DNA from: a virus
IMG/VR virus record: IMGVR_UViG_3300045988_075126
Location: 32,001-96,000 of that record
Length of the DNA stretch: 64,000 nucleotides
Direction: 5' to 3' (one strand)
The notes below the pieces were generated by a model that did not search any database, had not been told where the DNA came from, and was given only the letters and a program-made list of their open reading frames with translations. A program made the position numbers and the translations under genes. How positions within the stretch are numbered: the stretch's first letter is position 1; each line of letters opens with the position of its first letter. Below are positions 13,533-60,657 of the stretch, one piece after another.

Positions 13533-14582
13533 ATGAAGATACGGACATTTCAACTTTGTGCTGGGTATGACTCTCAACTGATGGCTTTAGAGCGGTTGAA
13601 AAAGAAACATTCTGATTTCGATTACGAGTGCATCGGTTGGTCGGAGATAGAGCCAAGTGCAATAGCTTTGCATAACGCTTGCTTTCCTCATCTATCCGGC
13701 AAGAACTTTGGTGACATGACAAAGATAGATTGGAGCAAGGTTGAAGACTTTGACTTGCTGACATATTCAACACCTTGCCAGTCTGTTTCGCAAGCCGGAA
13801 AGCAGGAAGGAATAGAGGAGGGAAGTAATACCCGTTCCTCTATCCTTTGGTTCACAAGAAACACCATTATTACCAGGAGACCGAAATACCTCTTAATGGA
13901 GAATGTAGAGGCTTTGGTTCAAACAAAGTTTATCGGGTTCTTCAACAAGTGGCGCAAGGAGTTGGAATCCTACGGATATGTTAACTATGCTAAGGTGGTA
14001 AATGCAGCCGACTGCGGTGTTCCTCAGAACAGAAAGCGTGTCTTCATGCTCTCTATACGAAACGATGGTGATAAGATAGATTATCATTTTCCGAGAAAGA
14101 TAAAGCTGGAGAAACACTTAGTTGATGTCTTGGAGGAAAATGTGGACGAGAAGTACTTTTTGAGCGATGCCCTGCTATGTAAAGAGAAGTTTGTGTCAAA
14201 TGAAAGGAAAGAGCCTATGAGTGCAGCTATAAGAACTCGTTCTGAGGGGAAGTGGATAAAAGGCGAAATGCATAGTCCAAAGGTCGAGCTTGGAAAGAAT
14301 ATAGCCAATACCATTACATCTGCGAGCAAGGACTCCTTGGTTGTGCTTGGAGAGACAAGGTTGCGCATTAGGCGTTTGACTCCGAGAGAACTCTTCCGCT
14401 TAATGAACGTTGACGAAGAATACATAGACAAGATGCTTGAAAGTGGAGTGTCGAAGTCAAGTCTTCAAAAGGCTGCTGGAAATTCGATTGTCGTAGCTTG
14501 CATGGAGAGAATATTCAAGGAACTTTGGTTTTCTGAGAGTAATGTTAAGGTCGCTGATGATGGTCAGCTATGTCTATTTTAA
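13533..14582 (+). CDS. dcm: DNA (cytosine-5)-methyltransferase
   Basis: C5-MTase motifs: LCAGYDS (I), STPCQSVSQAG (IV, PCQ), LLMENV (VI), QNRKRVF (VIII), GNSIVV (X). Confidence 0.85.
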   Translation: MKIRTFQLCAGYDSQLMALERLKKKHSDFDYECIGWSEIEPSAIALHNACFPHLSGKNFGDMTKIDWSKVEDFDLLTYSTPCQSVSQAGKQEGIEEGSNTRSSILWFTRNTIITRRPKYLLMENVEALVQTKFIGFFNKWRKELESYGYVNYAKVVNAADCGVPQNRKRVFMLSIRNDGDKIDYHFPRKIKLEKHLVDVLEENVDEKYFLSDALLCKEKFVSNERKEPMSAAIRTRSEGKWIKGEMHSPKVELGKNIANTITSASKDSLVVLGETRLRIRRLTPRELFRLMNVDEEYIDKMLESGVSKSSLQKAAGNSIVVACMERIFKELWFSESNVKVADDGQLCLF

Positions 14583-16500: not shown

Positions 16501-17748
16501 ATGATTTACGTAAGGAACAAGGAAGGTAAGGCATTGATGCCAAGCGAGCGTGGAGCGAGGATAGGTTATCTTCTTCGCCATGGTAAGGCTCATGTTGTCA
16601 GCCGTGTTCCGTTTATCGTTCAGTTGGATTATGAGAGCACCACCTATACGCAGGAAGTGAGCCTTGGCATTGATGCTGGCTCAAAGCACATAGGCGTTTC
16701 GGCTAGTTCCGAGAAGAAGGAGCTGCTTGCAGCGCAGGTTGAGTTAAGAAGTGATGTTGTGAACTTGCTTTCTGCTCGCAGGGAGTTGAGACGGACAAGG
16801 CGAAACCGCAAGACACGTTACCGCAAGGTTCGTTTTGATAACCGCAAGAAGAAAGATGGTTGGCTTGCACCCAGTATTGAGCAAAAGGTTGAGAGCCACT
16901 TGAAGGTTATCCGCTTGGTTCATAAGTTACTTCCAATTACGAAGACCACTATTGAGGTTGCTCAGTTCGATGCTCAGAAAATCAAGAATACCGACATCAA
17001 GGGTGAGGAGTATCAGCAGGGCGAACAGATGGGCTTTTGGAATGTTAGGGAGTACGTCTTGGCAAGGGATGGGCACAAGTGCATTCACTGCAAGGGTAAG
17101 AGCAAAGACCCTATCTTGAATGTTCACCATTTGGAGAGCCGCAAGACTGGTAGCAATTCCCCAAGCAATCTCGTAACGCTTTGCGAGACCTGCCACAAGG
17201 CTTACCATCGTGGAGAGTTCGACTTGAAAGTCAAGCGTGGCACTACTTTGCGTGATGCTGCGGTGATGAACATTATGCGTTGGGCGGTCTATGAGCGAGC
17301 GAAGGCAGAGTTTGGGAATGTTCACTTGACTTATGGTTACATAACTAAGCACACTCGCATAGAGAATGGTATTGCTAAGAGCCATGCAGCCGATGCTTTC
17401 TGTATTGCCAAGAACGTAAATGCAATGCGGTTGGAATTCTTCTTCATGTGCCGTTGTGTTCCCCGTCATACGAGAGCCTTGCATGTAGCGAATCCAAAGA
17501 AAGGTGGCATCCGCAGAAGCACGATAGCCTCTCATAAGATAGGTAAGTCTCGCTTCCAGCGTTTCGACATGGTGCGGTGGATGGGCGAGGAATGCTTTAT
17601 CTTTGGCAGCACGCATGGTAATGTTGTTTTGCGTAAAATTGATGGTGTAAAGGTGCATGAAACGCAAGCTGTGAACATCAAGACGATAAAGTTTTTGAGG
17701 AGATTGAGAAATAATATTTTAGTTAAAGAAATAGTTTTTATAAGTTGA
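16501..17748 (+). CDS. iscB: IscB RNA-guided nuclease (RuvC-HNH, OMEGA family)
   Basis: 415 aa. PLMP-like KALMPSERG; RuvC-I SLGIDAGSKHIGVS; Arg-rich bridge helix RRELRRTRRNRKTRYRKVRFDNRKKK; HNH CIHCKG..NVHHLESR..NLVTLCETCHKAYH; RuvC-III KSHAADAF. Confidence 0.85.
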   Translation: MIYVRNKEGKALMPSERGARIGYLLRHGKAHVVSRVPFIVQLDYESTTYTQEVSLGIDAGSKHIGVSASSEKKELLAAQVELRSDVVNLLSARRELRRTRRNRKTRYRKVRFDNRKKKDGWLAPSIEQKVESHLKVIRLVHKLLPITKTTIEVAQFDAQKIKNTDIKGEEYQQGEQMGFWNVREYVLARDGHKCIHCKGKSKDPILNVHHLESRKTGSNSPSNLVTLCETCHKAYHRGEFDLKVKRGTTLRDAAVMNIMRWAVYERAKAEFGNVHLTYGYITKHTRIENGIAKSHAADAFCIAKNVNAMRLEFFFMCRCVPRHTRALHVANPKKGGIRRSTIASHKIGKSRFQRFDMVRWMGEECFIFGSTHGNVVLRKIDGVKVHETQAVNIKTIKFLRRLRNNILVKEIVFIS

Positions 17749-19894: not shown

Positions 19895-20151
19895 TGAAGA
19901 TTGAACCAAGTGAGTTCTTGCCGATAGGTAATGAGTTTCAGAAAATCTTCGGTGTAAGCTTTGGAAAGTTCATTGATATGCGGTTTCTTTTGGCAAGAAA
20001 AGAGCTGGTCTTCAACTTGCTGAAGTTCACAGACTGGCTTGAAGAACGTTATCCGGATGAGTGTTCCATTGATGGAGTGAGTTACAATGCGGTTGTCGGG
20101 CGAAAGTTTGGCAAGCGAGGTGTTAAAATGATTAAGAAGTTGATAGGATGA
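19894..20151 (+). CDS. hypothetical protein
   Basis: ORF track, 85 aa, start overlaps the previous stop. Confidence 0.55.
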   Translation: MKIEPSEFLPIGNEFQKIFGVSFGKFIDMRFLLARKELVFNLLKFTDWLEERYPDECSIDGVSYNAVVGRKFGKRGVKMIKKLIG

Positions 20152-20873
20152 AGTACATGGGTAGTAAGGCTAGAATCGTGCATGAGATATTGCCGATTAT
20201 GCTGGACAAAGAACATGATACGTTTGTTGACGCTTTCTGTGGTGGATGTAGTGTTATTGAAAATGTGCCGGACACGTATCGCAGGATTGCCAACGATAAG
20301 AATAGGTATCTTATCGAAATGTGGAAGTATCTTCAGAATGATGGGTTTGTCTTCAACCATATTAGCAAGACGTTGTATAACTTTGCACGAGACTGTTATC
20401 ATGGAAAGAATAATTACTTCACAGAAGCAGGTGTCGGACTAATTGGCTTTATGGCGAGCTTTAATGGTCGTTTCTTTGATGGTGGCTATAGCGGACATAA
20501 TGTGGTCGGCAAGAACGGAAAGGTAAGAGATTACATAAGGGAGCAGATAGAAAACACAATGCGTGATGTGCCTCTTCTCAAAGGTGTTGAGTTCTATAGC
20601 GGCAGTTATGATGAACTTGTGATACCGGATAGGAGTATAGTGTATTGCGATTTGCCTTACAAAGCTACGAAAAAGTATGATGTATCAAAGAATTTCGATT
20701 ACGAAAGATTCTATATATGGTGCATGGAAATGGCTAGAAGAGGTCATAAGGTCTTTATCAGCGAGTACCAGATGCCCCAAGAGTTCAGATGTGTTTGGGA
20801 AAAGGAAGTAACCAATTCCCTTAACCCGAATATCACAAAGAGACCAGTCGAAAGGTTGTTTACAATTGATTAG
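20148..20873 (+). CDS. dam: N6-adenine DNA methyltransferase (D12/Dam class)
   Basis: N-terminal MKYMGSKARIV (SAM-binding GSK motif) and catalytic DPPY-type VYCDLPYKAT. Confidence 0.8.
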   Translation: MKYMGSKARIVHEILPIMLDKEHDTFVDAFCGGCSVIENVPDTYRRIANDKNRYLIEMWKYLQNDGFVFNHISKTLYNFARDCYHGKNNYFTEAGVGLIGFMASFNGRFFDGGYSGHNVVGKNGKVRDYIREQIENTMRDVPLLKGVEFYSGSYDELVIPDRSIVYCDLPYKATKKYDVSKNFDYERFYIWCMEMARRGHKVFISEYQMPQEFRCVWEKEVTNSLNPNITKRPVERLFTID

Positions 20874-25659: not shown

Positions 25660-25806
25660 ATGAAAGTAATATTTATAATAGGTATAGTCTTGATTATATT
25701 TGGAGTGTACTTGTTCTTGAAAGATTTTGCATATATGCTCCAAGGAGTCATACTTATGATATTAGGAGCAGGTATATTAGGCATCAGCTTGTCTTATATC
25801 GTTTAA
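25660..25806 (+). CDS. small two-TM membrane protein (48 aa)
   Basis: MKVIFIIGIVLIIFGVYLFLKDFAYMLQGVILMILGAGILGISLSYIV. Preferred over the out-of-frame track ORF 25569-25904. Confidence 0.45.
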   Translation: MKVIFIIGIVLIIFGVYLFLKDFAYMLQGVILMILGAGILGISLSYIV

Positions 25807-25833
25807 TGTTTAACGCCTTCTGGCACAAATTGA

Positions 25834-26109
25834 TTGATTATGATTTTAAATTGTATTACAGCTATTATTATTGTGGCGATTGTTTGTACCACCATTGTCG
25901 TTAACTGCTATATCAGCAAGAAGACTGCTGATTATAAGGCGACATTAAAAAAGCGCAAGGAATTTATGTCCGATATTGGTTATTATATTAATAGAATCAA
26001 TAAGAATTTTGAGCGTATAGACGTAGAGAAAAGTGCAAGGGAGCAAATAGGCTCTGACTTGCATTTTGTCAGAGATTATATCTATAAGTATTGTGATGAG
26101 ATAGATTAA
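25834..26109 (+). CDS. membrane-anchored protein
   Basis: 91 aa with an N-terminal TM (ILNCITAIIIVAIVCTTIVV). Confidence 0.55.
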   Translation: MIMILNCITAIIIVAIVCTTIVVNCYISKKTADYKATLKKRKEFMSDIGYYINRINKNFERIDVEKSAREQIGSDLHFVRDYIYKYCDEID

Positions 26110-26137
26110 CCGCCTTTAGGCATAAATAAATAGTAAT

Positions 26138-26323
26138 ATGAAAGCAAGTGAGTTGATAGAGCATTTAAAATCTTACATTGATTTTACAGGTGGAGATTGT
26201 GAAATGCTTGTATTTGATAAAGCAGAAGGTGTTTCTTGTGGTATCGAGAATACTTCTACGGATGGTGATTATGTGTTTCTGCACATTTCATCCGATAAAT
26301 ACACAACAAAGATACCTGAGTAA
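26138..26323 (+). CDS. hypothetical protein
   Basis: ORF track, 61 aa. Confidence 0.5.
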   Translation: MKASELIEHLKSYIDFTGGDCEMLVFDKAEGVSCGIENTSTDGDYVFLHISSDKYTTKIPE

Positions 26324-26357
26324 TTACCATCCCTTATGGGATATAAATATAAGAAAT

Positions 26358-27140
26358 ATGAAGGAATTAAGAAAGAAAACATTTAAAAATGGTGTCGTGT
26401 ATTGTCTTCAGTTAGAAGATGGTTTTCTAGTTGAAACTACAGATACATTCTTGCCTTATTACACTAAAGATGCAATAGGCAGACATCAGAATAAGCTCGA
26501 CAACAATGAGCTTGGCGACCGCATGGAACGTTGGATGATAGGAGTATCTACAATGAGTGGATGTCCAGTAAGATGCAAGTTCTGTGCTACAGGCAACATG
26601 AAACGTTATCGCAATCTTACAGCAGAAGAAATCGTTGAACAGGTTGAATTTGCCATCAACAAGGCAGGTGCTGACCCAAGCAAAGCAAAAGAGTTTAAGA
26701 TAAACTATACTCGTATGGGCGAGCCATTCCTTAATATTGATGCAGTCAAAGAGGCTATTCGTGTTATTACTGAGAAATATCCTAATACCCATCATTACGT
26801 ATCAACGATTGGTATCAAGGGGAGTGATTTTTCTTTCATTAAGGGAAATATTACGTTACAGATTAGTTTGCATTCATTTGATGATAACAAGCGTAATTGG
26901 TTGATTCCTTACAAGAACAAAATGACTATTCAAGAGTTAGGTCAGATACGGACACAAAGCAATCTGAAAACAACAATCAACCTCACTCTTGTTGATACAT
27001 CTGATTTCGATGCGAAAAAGTTGGCTGAGTGGTTTGATAAGGAACATTTCTTTGTGAAGTTGTCTCCTATCAATGTGAATAACATATCAGAAAAGAATCA
27101 TCTTGGAACTGGTGTAGTAGAAGGAATTAATTTAGTATGA
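26358..27140 (+). CDS. RlmN/Cfr-family radical SAM methyltransferase core (lacks the C-terminal Cys motif)
   Basis: Internal ATG of ORF 26178-27140. GVSTMSGCPVRCKFCATG (CX3CX2C), EEIVEQV, RMGEPFLN, VSTIG, LQISLHS, LIPYKNK, VKLSPINV: same order as in RlmN. Ends before the AACGQL region. Confidence 0.75.
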   Translation: MKELRKKTFKNGVVYCLQLEDGFLVETTDTFLPYYTKDAIGRHQNKLDNNELGDRMERWMIGVSTMSGCPVRCKFCATGNMKRYRNLTAEEIVEQVEFAINKAGADPSKAKEFKINYTRMGEPFLNIDAVKEAIRVITEKYPNTHHYVSTIGIKGSDFSFIKGNITLQISLHSFDDNKRNWLIPYKNKMTIQELGQIRTQSNLKTTINLTLVDTSDFDAKKLAEWFDKEHFFVKLSPINVNNISEKNHLGTGVVEGINLV

Positions 27141-27904
27141 AAAAGGGAATTTTTAGATACAGGATTATCACGAATCTGAATTGCAACATGAATGAAAGCA
27201 CAGGAGTAAACGGAAATTGTTACTTCTGTTACCAAAAGTTCAAGTCACCGTTGCGCTTGGATAGTGATAAGATGGAGGAAACATTGAAGAAGGTTGGTGT
27301 TCTGAAAAGAGCAACTATCATGGGAGGCGAAAGCTTGCTCAATCCAGATTTGGTAAAGATTGTAAAGATAGTCAGCAACTATACATCTGATGGTATCTGT
27401 CTTGTTACAAATGGAATACTGCTTAATGAGGACATCATCGTTGCATTGAAAGATGCCGGATTAACTGAGGTTGCTATCAGCGTGTCTTCTATCGAACAAT
27501 ACGAAAGACGTAGAGACATGGCACTTCTGTGTAAGGAGATTATTCCAAACACAAGAATAAACATTCCTAAGTGCAAGGAAAGTTTGAATCCACAACTACT
27601 GGAAACAATACTATCAGATAGTTTCTATAGCATTGTATGCGAAGATTTACAGGCAAGGTATGGTGAGATAAGACTCCCAGATGGTTCTGTAAAGGTTGGT
27701 GATGACGGATATGGATTTTATGATTACAAGTGGAATGGCCATACGTTTGGAGTATTTGGCAATTATGGGAAGTACAACAGAAGCGATATTATCATAACTC
27801 CTCTTGGAAATTTCTGTGATTGGGAAAAGTATTGCAAGGCCGTTAAGAACAATGAACTTGTCAGAAGAAACAATCATATTGATGATGACAAAATTGTGCA
27901 TTGA
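27137..27904 (+). CDS. second radical-SAM-like enzyme (MoaA/SPASM-type core, atypical CX11CX2C)
   Basis: TNLNCNMNESTGVNGNCYFCY, IMGGESLLNPD, LVTNGILL. No SPASM Cys cluster evident. Confidence 0.55.
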   Translation: MKKGIFRYRIITNLNCNMNESTGVNGNCYFCYQKFKSPLRLDSDKMEETLKKVGVLKRATIMGGESLLNPDLVKIVKIVSNYTSDGICLVTNGILLNEDIIVALKDAGLTEVAISVSSIEQYERRRDMALLCKEIIPNTRINIPKCKESLNPQLLETILSDSFYSIVCEDLQARYGEIRLPDGSVKVGDDGYGFYDYKWNGHTFGVFGNYGKYNRSDIIITPLGNFCDWEKYCKAVKNNELVRRNNHIDDDKIVH

Positions 27905-28325
27905 TTTCGGAAGTGGCTATAATCCAAAGGCTGGATATAAAACTTGCGATGTAAAAACCTTTCCACAATTGGATTTTCAGTATGATGGGAAAGATGAGAT
28001 TGTCGGTCTTAGAGAAAAATCAGTAGATGTATTTTATCTAAGAAACGTTGTTCATCATATCCCAGATTTACAGAGAACTTTTACAACCTTGAAGAAGTAT
28101 CTGAAGGTAGGTGGGAAGCTAGTTATCATTGATTGCAATAAAGGTCATTATAAGACAAATGTATTTCTTGACAATTTATGGTATAGATTTGTTGGCAATA
28201 ACAACGAAATCTTTATCAGTAAACAGTATAGAGATTACATTAACGTTTTGAAAAAGTTAGGTTTTAAGCAATTATATTATAAATCATTTAAAGAAAAGGA
28301 GATTACTAAGTATGAATGCAATTAA
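27852..28325 (+). CDS. class I SAM-dependent methyltransferase
   Basis: Motif I LCIDFGSGYNP and post-I/II LKVGGKLVIID. Start ambiguous (27852, 27882 or 27885), overlaps the upstream gene. Confidence 0.6.
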   Translation: MNLSEETIILMMTKLCIDFGSGYNPKAGYKTCDVKTFPQLDFQYDGKDEIVGLREKSVDVFYLRNVVHHIPDLQRTFTTLKKYLKVGGKLVIIDCNKGHYKTNVFLDNLWYRFVGNNNEIFISKQYRDYINVLKKLGFKQLYYKSFKEKEITKYECN

Positions 28326-28431
28326 GAATCAATTGGAAAAGATGGGCTACGATTATGCAGTAGCAATCGCAACAAAGGCTGAAATTGAGAATGGAGCTGC
28401 TTGTGGCCAGCTCGCTATTATTTGTGAGTAA
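28312..28431 (+). CDS. 39-aa ORF encoding the detached RlmN/Cfr C-terminal segment (AACGQL motif)
   Basis: MNAIKNQLEKMGYDYAVAIATKAEIENGAACGQLAIICE aligns with the RlmN C-terminus ...[25 protein letters not shown] (recalled from memory). Confidence 0.55.
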   Translation: MNAIKNQLEKMGYDYAVAIATKAEIENGAACGQLAIICE

Positions 28432-28441
28432 GTAATTAACC

Positions 28442-28469
28442 ACCCTCTCCTTGGCAACAGGGAGAGGGT
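28442..28469 (+). terminator. strong hairpin (possible terminator)
   Basis: ACCCTCTCC(28442-50)/GGAGAGGGT(28461-69), 9 bp. Followed by an A-run rather than a U-run, so function is uncertain. Confidence 0.35.
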
Positions 28470-28483
28470 AAAAAGAAGAAAAT

Positions 28484-28792
28484 ATGGCAGACATGGAATT
28501 TGGAAAATGTGATATTTGTGGCAAAGAAGCTGCTTTATCACGTACATATTTCAAATATAGAATAGGTAGTTGTGAGTGTTGTGAAAGCAAATTGCGTGAT
28601 GGCTCAAAAGGTCATTTTGAGGTTGTGCATCATTGCAATAAATGCGTTCCTCATTTACCTACAGTTATTCATCCTTTATTTAAGGCTTTAGATGGTAAAG
28701 TTTACAGAGCAAATGTTACTAACGTTTTACCATTTGAAATTGAAGGTAAATACATTATCGAAGAACCAGTAATCAAGGAGGATAAGCAATGA
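28484..28792 (+). CDS. Cys-rich zinc-binding protein
   Basis: 102 aa with CDIC...CECC...HHCNKC. Confidence 0.55.
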   Translation: MADMEFGKCDICGKEAALSRTYFKYRIGSCECCESKLRDGSKGHFEVVHHCNKCVPHLPTVIHPLFKALDGKVYRANVTNVLPFEIEGKYIIEEPVIKEDKQ

Positions 28793-29304
28793 GCAAAATG
28801 AACGTTAAGGAGTCACTTCTAGATGTTGTTAAAAGCAACAACCTAGAGATACTCAAAATAGATTTATTTAACGATTTTGAGTTGTTCGTAAGAGAAGGCA
28901 CTAGGGAACGTAATGAGTATTGCAAGACTTATACAACATTAGACGATTTGGATTTTGAGGTAGAGGCTTACTTGCTGAATGATGAAGTACGTGGAATTGT
29001 ATACTGCCAAGATAAAGACACAAAAGAACCTGTGTGGATTGAACCTTGGAGTGATGAATGCTGTTCTTGGTGGCAGGTTAGCAGAGTCCCAAAGTTCTAC
29101 AAACGAAATACTTTAAATGAAGTAAAGTTATTATTAATCAGTGCTAGAAACAGGTTTCGTAGTGCTATTGATGGTGTGATGATACCTCCTGATGAGAGAT
29201 ATAGAGAAAAGTCAAAAGCATTTGAGGAACTTGAAAAAGCACTTGAAGAGTTGGAAAACGAAACTATGTGGGTAAGCAAGCCCGATAAGGAGGACAAGGT
29301 ATGA
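28789..29304 (+). CDS. hypothetical protein
   Basis: ORF track, 171 aa. Confidence 0.6.
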   Translation: MSKMNVKESLLDVVKSNNLEILKIDLFNDFELFVREGTRERNEYCKTYTTLDDLDFEVEAYLLNDEVRGIVYCQDKDTKEPVWIEPWSDECCSWWQVSRVPKFYKRNTLNEVKLLLISARNRFRSAIDGVMIPPDERYREKSKAFEELEKALEELENETMWVSKPDKEDKV

Positions 29305-29651
29305 ATTACAAAAAGATACTAACGAGATACATTCAAGGAAGGCTGTCAGAATTGTCTAATGTTGACGCTTATGAACCAAACAAGTTGGCATTAACTAACA
29401 TGTTGTGGTTTCTTGGCAAGGCAACCAGTAATGAAGTGATTGTGGCAAAGCTTAAAATCATGGATGGTGCTGATATAAAAAGAAAGAAATATCTTAGTAG
29501 GTATGATGGTAACGAATCATTATACGAGGATGATTATTCCAAGGCGGTAGGAACTATCGGAAAGGATTGCTTGACGTATTTACAAAACGCCAAAAATGAG
29601 GTGCAAGATGAAAACAAGGCAAGCCAAGAAGATTTTGAAGAGCCGGAATGA
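29301..29651 (+). CDS. hypothetical protein
   Basis: ORF track, 116 aa. Confidence 0.6.
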   Translation: MNYKKILTRYIQGRLSELSNVDAYEPNKLALTNMLWFLGKATSNEVIVAKLKIMDGADIKRKKYLSRYDGNESLYEDDYSKAVGTIGKDCLTYLQNAKNEVQDENKASQEDFEEPE

Positions 29652-29751
29652 TTATTGGTGGTCAAGAAGATATTGGTATAAGTTAGAATTTGACCAATTG
29701 CGTTTTAAAGACCACCGCATCACAAAGGCGATAAGATTAACAAAAAAGTAG
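29608..29751 (+). CDS. small basic protein (47 aa), paralog of 30142-30402
   Basis: MKTRQAKKILKS...DHRITKAIRLTKK versus MKIRQAKKIMKE...DHRLLKAMRLTQK. Below the track cutoff. Confidence 0.45.
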   Translation: MKTRQAKKILKSRNDYWWSRRYWYKLEFDQLRFKDHRITKAIRLTKK

Positions 29752-29757
29752 TAGTGT

Positions 29758-30138
29758 ATGAATATAGAATTTTTATATCTTAGTATGAGCTTTATCTACA
29801 TCCTGCTTGTTTGTTTGGATGGAGAAGATGTTAAGCCAAAATGGAAGCAATGGCTAGCTGACCAACTAGGCATCAAACCAAAGATAGAGGTTAGATACAT
29901 AAAGCCACAAGTTATTAAGCTTCATTCAAGAGTTGCAATGTCAAGCTTTGAAATGCAATATTATTGCCGTGACAAATCTGGCATGGAGCAATTGAAGAGA
30001 AGAGCAATAGAAAGTGTGTATGATGGCATTCTCCGGGAAATGAAGGCAAACGAATTGGTTTCCATTTCGCAATATAATGACATTTATAGTAATAACACTA
30101 TTTATGAGGGGACATGTGAAATTTATAAAAATAATTAG
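29758..30138 (+). CDS. membrane-anchored protein
   Basis: 126 aa with an N-terminal hydrophobic segment (FLYLSMSFIYILLVCL). Confidence 0.55.
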   Translation: MNIEFLYLSMSFIYILLVCLDGEDVKPKWKQWLADQLGIKPKIEVRYIKPQVIKLHSRVAMSSFEMQYYCRDKSGMEQLKRRAIESVYDGILREMKANELVSISQYNDIYSNNTIYEGTCEIYKNN

Positions 30139-30141
30139 TAT

Positions 30142-31794: not shown

Positions 31795-32070
31795 ATGGAA
31801 TTAAAGATAAAAACGAATCATGCATTACCTTGCCGTACAGAGGTATTCACAATTAACGGAAAGAATGCCGAACAAAATGATTTTGGTGATATGTATGACC
31901 ATCATGCTCAAGATGCAGAGCCTTATGCTTGTGCCGATATGCACTTTGACCCAAAGCCTCCAACAAAGGAAGTACTAAACCGCTATAATATAACGGATAA
32001 AGAATATTATGACATCTGTAACGAACTAGAAAGCGAGTTGTACGTTGGTCGTTGCGGATGGTGTATTTGA
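31795..32070 (+). CDS. hypothetical protein
   Basis: ORF track, 91 aa, ends CGWCI. Confidence 0.55.
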   Translation: MELKIKTNHALPCRTEVFTINGKNAEQNDFGDMYDHHAQDAEPYACADMHFDPKPPTKEVLNRYNITDKEYYDICNELESELYVGRCGWCI

Positions 32071-58807: not shown

Positions 58808-58829
58808 CAAGTACTTTTGTCATATTACA

Positions 58830-58902
58830 AGGAATGTAGCTCAGTAGTAGAGCACTTGGCTTGGTAACCAAGGGGGCGTTGGTGCAAATCCAACCATTCC
58901 TT
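58830..58902 (+). tRNA. tRNA with 8-nt anticodon loop CTTGGTAA (Thr-GGT-like with an extra U; identity uncertain)
   Basis: Acceptor AGGAATG/CATTCCT, D-arm GCTC-AGTAGTA-GAGC (no GG), anticodon stem CTTGG/CCAAG enclosing 8 nt, T-arm GTTGG-TGCAAAT-CCAAC (atypical T-loop). 73 nt. Confidence 0.55.
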
Positions 58903-58905
58903 TAC

Positions 58906-59716: not shown

Positions 59717-59727
59717 CACAATTGATT

Positions 59728-60657
59728 ATGTCTAAGCAGACTGGTTTTTCATTCGCAAGTTCAAAGAAGTCATTAATTGAGACTATTGACGAAATAAAGA
59801 AGTCAAAGATGCCTCGCAACGAAAAGATTGTTGCATTGAAGGCTTGCGGTCTTCGTGAGAAAGAAATCTCCGATATGTTGAAGGTCTATGTACCTAGCGG
59901 CTCTACTTCAACGAGATTTGTTTATACATTCGGTGTTGAGATTGAATGTGTTCATGCCGAGCGCAATGCCTTGATAGAGGCAGGTCGTCAGAATGGTGTT
60001 GATATTCATTCTGAGGGTTATAACCACACCGATAATAAGAGCTATTTCAAGATTGTTAGTGATTCTTCTGTTGGTGGTGATGTTGACCCTAACGAGGTTG
60101 TTAGTCCGGTATTGAATGGCAATACAAATGGTATGGCAACTTTGAAGAAGGCTATTAAGTCTTTGGATGCTGTAGGTGCAAGAGTTAATTCTACTTGTGG
60201 TCTTCACGTTCATATTGGGGCAGCAAAGTTGACAGGTGAGCAGTATGTTAACGTTTTCAAGAATTATCAGAAACTTGAAAGATTGATTGATAGTTTCATG
60301 GCTCCTTCAAGAAGAGGTAATTGCCGTTGGGCAGCCAGCTTGCTTGACAAGGATTTCTCTAATTGCCACGGCAATTACGATATTAGACGTAATGTATTTC
60401 ATGGAGATAGATATTACAAGGTCAATGCAGAGAGCTATGCACGTCACAAGACTATCGAATTTCGCCAGCATCAAGGTTCAACCAATTATAAGAAGATTGA
60501 AATGTGGGTTAAGTTCTGTGCAAAGCTTGTCGGTTGGTCTCGCAACAATGTCTTCACTAGTGAGGTTATGAATATCGAAGATATACCTTTCTTGAATAAA
60601 GAAGAGAAGGCTTTCTTCCAGAGCCGTAAGGATGCATTTGCAGCCAATAATAATTAA
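59728..60657 (+). CDS. amidoligase (glutamine-synthetase-like COOH-NH2 ligase, Amidoligase_2 family)
   Basis: FGVEIECV, VVSPVL, CGLHVHIG, IEFRQHQGS: the conserved blocks of the phage/bacterial amidoligase family. First ATG of ORF 59722. Confidence 0.7.
   Translation: MSKQTGFSFASSKKSLIETIDEIKKSKMPRNEKIVALKACGLREKEISDMLKVYVPSGSTSTRFVYTFGVEIECVHAERNALIEAGRQNGVDIHSEGYNHTDNKSYFKIVSDSSVGGDVDPNEVVSPVLNGNTNGMATLKKAIKSLDAVGARVNSTCGLHVHIGAAKLTGEQYVNVFKNYQKLERLIDSFMAPSRRGNCRWAASLLDKDFSNCHGNYDIRRNVFHGDRYYKVNAESYARHKTIEFRQHQGSTNYKKIEMWVKFCAKLVGWSRNNVFTSEVMNIEDIPFLNKEEKAFFQSRKDAFAANNN

Follow-up and report, generated by a model that had tools for sequence, protein, structure and literature searches.

RlmN and Cfr are, to our knowledge, the sole characterised class-A radical S-adenosylmethionine (SAM) methylases, and the chemistry of both requires two cysteines in one chain. 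The locus described here belongs to a tailed gut phage and lies in a window of 64,000 nucleotides (positions 32,001 to 96,000 of the IMG/VR virus record IMGVR_UViG_3300045988_075126; all coordinates without further label refer to this window). At positions 26358-28431, four open reading frames (ORFs) on one strand, with overlapping or abutting ends, fill the interval completely and probably represent a conserved phage operon around a naturally split class-A, i.e. RlmN/Cfr-type, radical-SAM enzyme. Judged from sequence, a 260-aa protein would provide the [4Fe-4S]/SAM core, and a separate 39-aa protein the loop unit with the methyl-bearing cysteine. The features of these two proteins are the following.

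26358..27140, + strand: large radical-SAM ORF (large subunit), 260 aa; core of RlmN/Cfr fold, without N-terminal RNA-binding domain and without C-terminal cysteine tail
26541..26543, + strand: codon of Gly62 of the large subunit, at the RlmN Cys118 position, 7 residues before the first cluster cysteine
26562..26585, + strand: CX3CX2C [4Fe-4S]/SAM motif of the large subunit, CPVRCKFC, residues 69-76 (C69, C73, C76)
28312..28431, + strand: small ORF (small subunit, microprotein), 39 aa; corresponds to the last helix, last strand and cysteine loop of RlmN/Cfr
28402..28404, + strand: codon of Cys31 of the small subunit, counterpart of RlmN Cys355, the methyl-carrying cysteine

The large ORF, the small ORF and the RlmN/Cfr family

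The original prediction, made from the letters of the sequence, had described the large ORF as collinear with RlmN/Cfr and as ending before the catalytic cysteine motif, which it located on the 39-aa ORF downstream, and both statements are borne out. The large ORF matches Pfam Radical_SAM (E 3.3e-11, 44 bits, cutoff 29.5) and aligns collinearly with TIGR00048 (RlmN) over model positions 103-300 of 355 (E 1.3e-22, 80.2 bits, cutoff 290), its eight best NCBIfam matches are all models of RlmN/Cfr-type methyltransferases, and RlmN or Cfr make up the five best of six matches in a PDB sequence search. The protein ends with ...EGINLV, ahead of the catalytic-cysteine tail, and the equivalent of RlmN Cys355 is found in trans, not in cis. 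The 39-aa ORF reads ...GAACGQLAIICE with the tail motif GAACGQL, and once the two ORFs are joined, the TIGR00048 alignment extends to position 342 of 355 (from 80.2 to 87.9 bits) and the CfrAB alignment to 337 of 338 (from 56 to 65.8 bits), with AACGQL placed onto AACGQL of the solved RlmN chains. The curated equivalog score is not reached (TIGR00048 80 bits alone and 88 joined, versus 290; Cfr models 53-66 bits versus cutoffs of 468-550). The hidden Markov model of the small module also finds single-chain relatives, in each case through their C-terminal 30-40 residues (P0183 25.8 bits, P0173 24.3, P0190 23.1).

The joined large and small sequence was modelled by AlphaFold with an alignment of 63 relatives (predicted local distance difference test, pLDDT, 91.6; predicted template modelling score, pTM, 0.91), and the small part takes the form of a helix (259-271), a strand (274-277) and the loop with Cys291. 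All ten best PDB fold matches of this model (Foldseek, E 2.7e-15 to 1.5e-8, template modelling (TM) score up to 0.71) are RlmN (6fz6, 4pl1, 3rfa, 5hr6) or Cfr (9p0p), with spore photoproduct lyase as the next fold family (E 3e-4, TM 0.45); single-sequence AlphaFold of the joined ORFs gave a pLDDT of 37 only. The profile alignments of the large subunit begin at model position 102-103 of 355 and its alignments with RlmN at residue 97-117, and the 56 residues that precede the alignment start are modelled as three strands and a loop, an N-terminal accessory (RNA-binding) domain being missing.

A glycine at the position of RlmN Cys118 had equally been predicted. Gly62 aligns with residue 118 of the RlmN C118A chain 4pl1 and is invariant among diverse phage homologues, and the CX3CX2C motif is invariant in both large-subunit alignments. 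The cysteines of the large subunit are the cluster ligands and the non-conserved C16, while Cys31 is invariant in all small modules and their other cysteine, C38, is not conserved; a second conserved cysteine, of the resolving Cys118 type, is found in neither subunit. When the family is grouped by the residue seven positions ahead of the first cluster cysteine (position -7), counted per cluster representative, the following classes emerge.

Gly at -7: 24 cluster representatives, 0 with a C-terminal cysteine tail in the same chain; one has the module at its N-terminus
Cys at -7: 23 cluster representatives, 18 with a same-chain C-terminal cysteine tail, motif GGGCGQLW
Other residue at -7: 37 cluster representatives, 30 with a same-chain C-terminal cysteine tail, motif GSNCGQ or AACGQA

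Of the 2134 homologues of the large subunit at E<=1e-10, the 120 closest were listed, and almost all of these have a length of 260-262 aa; the seven longer or closest homologues whose sequences were read end with ...EG[VI]NLV or NLK. The metagenomic homologue P0122, otherwise typical, carries an intein-like insert of about 340 aa within the CX3CX2C motif.

Purifying selection acts on the small ORF. Across 36 distinct DNA versions, 5971 synonymous codon differences stand against 2026 nonsynonymous ones, and third-position changes (7283) outnumber those at the first (1294) and second (977) positions. The small-module profile retrieves at least 2823 related proteins, mostly of 39-50 aa, several of which bear the Joint Genome Institute (JGI) name 'adenine C2-methylase RlmN'; the peptide core GYDYAVAIAT..EI..GAACGQL is nearly invariant in 46 distinct versions, and across phyla the small peptide is better conserved than its enzyme. 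The module behaves as an autonomous unit: P0123 and P0146 carry it N-terminal to the core, as a circular permutation, Vibrio phage D479 (L003, 3300-3581) and P0369 have tandem copies of it in a single ORF, and in L149 (4253-4792) and L150 (1867-2406) it is fused in frame to the methyltransferase whose gene neighbours it in the operon, giving a 179-aa protein that amounts to a Rosetta-stone link. In P0370 the cysteine loop alone is duplicated, which yields two catalytic-type cysteines.

The split and the genes between its parts

The two parts of the enzyme are separated in the window by two further genes, in a stretch specific to this lineage.

27137..27904, + strand: second radical-SAM ORF (rSAM2), 255 aa; N-terminal half viperin/MoaA-like, C-terminal half family-specific
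27182..27229, + strand: cluster motif of rSAM2, C16-X11-C28-X2-C31
27882..28325, + strand: minimal class I SAM-dependent methyltransferase, about 147 aa; likely start ATG 27882, by comparison with homologues
27141..28311, + strand: lineage-specific middle stretch, in place of the spacer of about 20 nt between large and small gene in close relatives that lack the stretch

Originally, this arrangement had been described as a single gene split by a 1.2-kb insert with a repeat shared by the break points, and a pseudogene had been considered among the readings, in which an intact RlmN-like gene is cut by a mobile two-gene cassette and the fragments are inert. Indeed, 1.17 kb separate the parts in the window lineage, close relatives differ in carrying this 1.17-kb stretch, and the 8-mer AGTATGAA is present at both edges of 27141..28311. 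Comparison with other phages nevertheless makes such an origin exceedingly improbable. By tblastn against phage records, the large protein is found with a homologue of the small ORF a short way downstream in Kehishuvirus tikkala (crAss-like, Bacteroides), Moorella phage MTATph1, Vibrio phage D479, the Pectobacterium phages Arno18 and Wc4 and Yersinia phage P778, in all of which both parts are annotated and translated as separate ORFs, and an alignment of eight diverse large subunits gives one common end position. Many metagenomic contigs retain the two genes as well. In 37 of 80 related viral loci the small ORF follows the large gene after 21-27 nt, a further 40 are arranged as in the window, their four genes all intact (94-100% identity), and 3 are deletion variants; a small ORF is also nearby in 42 of 44 genome-derived loci. 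Where the large gene is 91-93% identical, the middle genes are present in some relatives and absent in others, and the difference starts exactly at the large-gene stop and ends at the small-gene start, which are the true boundaries. Close relatives lacking the cassette have two separate ORFs already.

Nor do the candidate repeats mark an insertion. For the proposed junction repeat, AAGAATCA, the count in the window is 6 versus 5.7 expected. It sits about 40 nt inside the large gene and not at its boundary, and both copies lie in coding sequence that is conserved also by relatives without the middle genes; AGTATGAA, with 6 occurrences versus 4.1 expected, is not rarer than chance either. A scan of 25800-29000 for introns gave no group I/II intron or other RNA family, and the gap holds no transposase or integrase, its coding content being rSAM2 and the methyltransferase only. 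Together with the purifying selection on the small ORF, the common end of the large subunits and a four-gene order retained down to 39% identity, these results speak for a split that, on comparative grounds, is old and conserved, being present in relatives without the middle genes and in unrelated phages, and for two of the readings first offered, a two-piece enzyme and a SAM-dependent module of several enzymes. Stop-codon readthrough or a frameshift fusing the two ORFs was considered and rejected, since the spacer of 21-27 nt keeps no common frame.

Gain and loss of the middle genes may have come about by homologous recombination between co-infecting phages, via the conserved flanking genes. 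Two natural deletion variants, L198 (without window positions 27620-30141) and L050 (without 27101-28779), have lost the small ORF along with a portion of rSAM2 or the large-gene end, so that some genomes can do without the module. Its gain, loss and deletion from one close relative to the next show it to be accessory. In other close relatives the large gene has an ORF for an HNH endonuclease directly at its start, either fused or abutting (L006 and L007, 5001-6317; L001, 2455-3672), and a Band_7/SPFH gene is located just upstream of the large gene in these and in Kehishuvirus; the window has neither the Band_7/SPFH gene nor an HNH fusion at the large gene.

The start of rSAM2 overlaps the stop of the large gene as ATGA. 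The protein matches Pfam Radical_SAM (2.7e-13), and its residues 9-122 alone match the MoaA and viperin profiles, below their cutoffs (MoaA 51 bits versus 231-325; viperin 41 bits versus 180). The pVip models are matched at 4e-13 (in PADLOC, an N-terminal viperin-like match only), and the nearest solved relatives are viperin chains. Nucleoside triphosphates are the substrates of viperin, pVip and MoaA alike. The CX11CX2C motif, which had been called unusual, is present as stated; as family members have CX3, CX5 or CX11 for their first cluster loop in the alignment, it is best described as a lineage-specific loop insertion in a canonical motif. The third gene, originally assigned to the class I methyltransferases, passes the Pfam cutoffs of Methyltransf_11 (29.9 versus 21.2), Methyltransf_23 and Methyltransf_31, has the glycine-rich motif I of Rossmann-type class I enzymes (IDFGSGYNP) and matches phrog_5399 (1.4e-26), with a weak mad2 match only in PADLOC. 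Its ORF is open from TTG 27804 or ATG 27852, homologues start about 6 aa ahead of IDFGSGYNP, and its 3' end overlaps the start of the small ORF.

Gene content marks rSAM2 and the methyltransferase as conserved partners of the large and small subunits, not as an accidental insertion. The rSAM2 family comprises 98 detectable homologues (39-97% identity), and every examined locus that extends far enough combines rSAM2 with the large gene, a methyltransferase homologue and the small ORF, apart from the deletion variant L198; at such partner loci the identity of rSAM2 falls to 39%, and a distant form is found in L256 (hhalign 98%, E 1e-13). The order is large, rSAM2, methyltransferase, small at most of these loci, small, large, rSAM2, methyltransferase in L200, and in L206-L208 the four genes are scattered across a few kb. 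The reverse does not hold, many loci having the large and small pair only. Second radical-SAM genes beside the permuted relatives (L145, P0146) were considered as the same partner and rejected, a relation to rSAM2 being undetectable beyond the generic core.

A small ORF next to two radical-SAM genes and a methyltransferase gene could also encode a substrate, i.e. a precursor of a ribosomally synthesized and post-translationally modified peptide (RiPP) or of a cofactor, comparable to PqqA or MftA, that is tailored by both radical-SAM enzymes and the methyltransferase. Multi-copy versions of the peptide would agree with this, and the fusion of methyltransferase and peptide could be one of enzyme and substrate. 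We nevertheless regard such a role as quite unlikely: the peptide corresponds, by homology and in collinear order, to a piece of RlmN/Cfr that is both structural and catalytic, its conservation across phyla exceeds that of its enzyme, unlike the hypervariable RiPP cores, profile scans of the four proteins of the window contained no SPASM, RRE or peptide-recognition domain, and most loci hold only the large gene and the peptide.

Just 3' of the small ORF, one further element was recorded.

28442..28469, + strand: 12-bp G+C-rich hairpin (-23.9 kcal/mol, z -4.4)

The operon transcript probably ends at this hairpin, after which no U tract follows, as a putative terminator. At the DNA level no relative of the region was found in phage records, the sole match being the 57 nt from 28431 to 28487, which include the hairpin and are 96.5% identical to part of the unrelated human gut phage contig MT835610.

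NAD-salvage context, substrate and mechanism

The pair, or in some lineages all four genes, is located inside or beside operons for nicotinamide adenine dinucleotide (NAD) salvage in at least eight divergent lineages. In a uniform tblastn test, NAD genes lay within 6 kb of 11 of 44 genome-derived loci of the split family versus 0 of 35 loci with more distant RlmN-like homologues (Fisher p 0.0009). In L147 and L226, genes for nicotinamidase, NAPRTase and a NUDIX protein precede the four-gene module, which is followed by NadE, NAD kinase, an NMNAT-like protein and CinA, and in L151 NUDIX and NAMPT precede the module. L258 (3272-8890) shows the order NAPRTase, nicotinamidase, NadE, large, small, NMNAT/NUDIX and NAD kinase. 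In L256 (4430-10741) an NrtR-like NUDIX/winged-helix regulator and a 184-aa ORF are followed by large, small and nicotinamidase and then by the methyltransferase, the distant rSAM2, NMNAT and NadE, all four module components being present. Our literature search found no paper connecting radical-SAM enzymes with the reconstitution of NAD by phages and no description of a split or phage RlmN-like enzyme, and a term search of the NARP3 paper gave neither 'radical' nor 'methyltransferase'.

If the two proteins do act together, the microprotein would dock on the core by strand addition, and its Cys31 would become S-methylated, either by cluster-bound SAM as in RlmN or, in four-gene versions, by the dedicated methyltransferase. 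The 5'-deoxyadenosyl radical would take a hydrogen from the S-methyl group, and the thiomethylene radical would then add to an sp2 carbon of a purine or pyridine ring; Minisci-type additions to a pyridinium or purine ring are chemically plausible. Because no second cysteine is conserved, the adduct would be resolved otherwise than in RlmN, by a second microprotein, an external thiol or a non-cysteine base, or it would persist. As the RNA-binding domain is missing, rSAM2 belongs to a clade acting on nucleoside triphosphates and the pair is recurrent in NAD operons, a nucleotide, possibly NAD or a precursor, appears a more likely substrate than rRNA or tRNA.

NAD depletion is a major antiphage strategy. 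It is conceivable, though we put it forward tentatively and would not call it likely, that the microprotein serves as a trans-acting methyl or methylene carrier with which the core C-alkylates a nucleotide cofactor (NAD(P), NaAD or a related adenine or pyridine nucleotide), and that the phage in this way makes either a modified dinucleotide proof against immune NADases or a peptide-nucleotide adduct, in a pathway that rSAM2 and the methyltransferase extend.

Several observations weigh against the split-enzyme reading or its extension to NAD. Alone, the small-module profile finds no RlmN chain among PDB sequences and no Pfam family, so that the homology is argued from concatenation, fused relatives, the model and the JGI naming. 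The model itself is one artificial fused chain guided by fused relatives, from which docking in trans is inferred. The 35 control loci of the NAD-gene test were a convenience set of distant RlmN-like homologues, mostly from bacterial chromosomes. In the window there is no NAD gene and no module neighbour with a recognisable function; among ten window neighbours, Pfam recognised only an unrelated D12 DNA methyltransferase. Finally, the 30 fused representatives of the third class above are also without a Cys118 equivalent, so the loss is shared with forms that are not split and, taken alone, gives no reason to expect a trapped adduct.

This last point bears on a related proposal, in which the microprotein is a sacrificial co-substrate that is consumed while the core turns over, its 39 residues remaining covalently on the target base as in RlmN C118A. 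The glycine in place of Cys118, a large subunit whose cysteines are limited to the cluster ligands and the non-conserved C16, and a microprotein with a single conserved cysteine would all suit it, tandem copies of the module or cysteine loop in several lineages fit a need for dosage or for a second thiol, and solved RlmN C118A structures (PDB 5hr6) display such a cross-link. By the same logic the many single-chain relatives without Cys118 would be suicide enzymes, which is improbable for so large a group, and another base or thiol could resolve the adduct, which leaves us rather sceptical of a consumed peptide.

The split enzyme could, instead of a nucleotide, address a canonical substrate, A37 of host or phage tRNAs or A2503 of 23S rRNA, and thereby serve, for example, to tune translation or to block anticodon nucleases. 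RlmN and Cfr are the nearest characterised enzymes, the phage carries tRNA genes, and a two-cysteine single-chain homologue is encoded inside a tRNA gene cluster of Stenotrophomonas phage ANB28. The missing N-terminal accessory domain of RlmN, the distance of 30 kb to the tRNA cluster in the window, the recurrence of NAD-salvage genes and not tRNAs as neighbours, and the likeness of rSAM2 to enzymes acting on nucleoside triphosphates all oppose it, and we hold an RNA substrate to be unlikely, if worth keeping in view.

The phage of the window is of about 110-135 kb and encodes a tape-measure protein, a major head protein and five tRNA genes. Within the cluster of Glu, Gln, Tyr and Lys tRNAs, ARAGORN calls a tRNA with a four-base anticodon (tggt) at 58829-58903, which could be a frameshift-suppressor-like tRNA or a miscall, and an amidoligase gene (59722-60657) adjoins the cluster. 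Further genes encode a DNA methyltransferase (13533-14582), an HNH endonuclease (16501-17748) and a D12-class N6-adenine DNA methyltransferase (20148-20873). A near-identical four-gene locus, with a 96% identical large gene and a 100% identical small ORF, is found on a contig of 135,577 bp in the assembly of the Segatella copri isolate HF1825 (L216, NZ_JANDWX010000006.1), and this copy on a phage-sized contig suggests Segatella copri as the host.

Comparison with known systems

The split pair would add to the radical-SAM methylases a large natural family that lacks the second cysteine and has the methyl-carrying cysteine loop as a microprotein of its own, which can be permuted, duplicated or fused to a methyltransferase. 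Such a family offers a ready system for dissecting the mechanism of RlmN and Cfr and hints at a different chemistry, and thousands of ignored or unnamed ORFs of 39-50 aa are probably enzyme subunits. The recurrent placement in NAD operons suggests that the nucleotide or NAD biology of phages includes a radical step so far unrecognised. Should the microprotein indeed be a carrier for the alkylation of NAD or a relative, a detachable catalytic cysteine loop used as a co-substrate would be a new enzymological principle, and a dinucleotide that immune NADases cannot use or destroy would open a new branch of phage NAD counter-defence.

With RlmN and Cfr (PDB 3rfa, 5hr6, 6fz6, 9p0p), the split form has in common the fold, the CX3CX2C core, the GEP, STxG and QxSxH blocks and the same AACGQL loop at the end of the same helix-strand-loop unit. 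It differs in that the cysteine loop is a gene of its own of 39 aa, Cys118 is replaced by glycine and the N-terminal RNA-binding domain is absent, and in that it scores 88 versus 290 bits, is phage-encoded and is often situated within NAD-salvage operons. Closer to it are single-chain RlmN-like proteins of about 300 aa (Stenotrophomonas phage ANB28, Salmonella phage Arash, Bacteroides phage Versailles; P0160, P0183, P0173), which are also without the RlmN N-terminal domain, are 30-42% identical to the large subunit and have tails that match the small-module profile. In these the tail is fused and none has glycine at -7; one group keeps Cys118 (GGGCGQLW), another lacks it (GSNCGQ or AACGQA). 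The likeness of rSAM2 to viperin and MoaA is confined to the N-terminal 100-120 residues or so, with the cluster loop and the GGE SAM motif, while the half-length match below cutoffs, the CX11 loop and a family-specific C-terminal half (CEDL..GRYG, W..YC) with three further invariant cysteines set it apart. The phage NAD sets (NARP1/2/3; NAMPT, NMNAT, NadE, PncA, NAPRT), finally, are connected with the split pair by gene neighbourhood.

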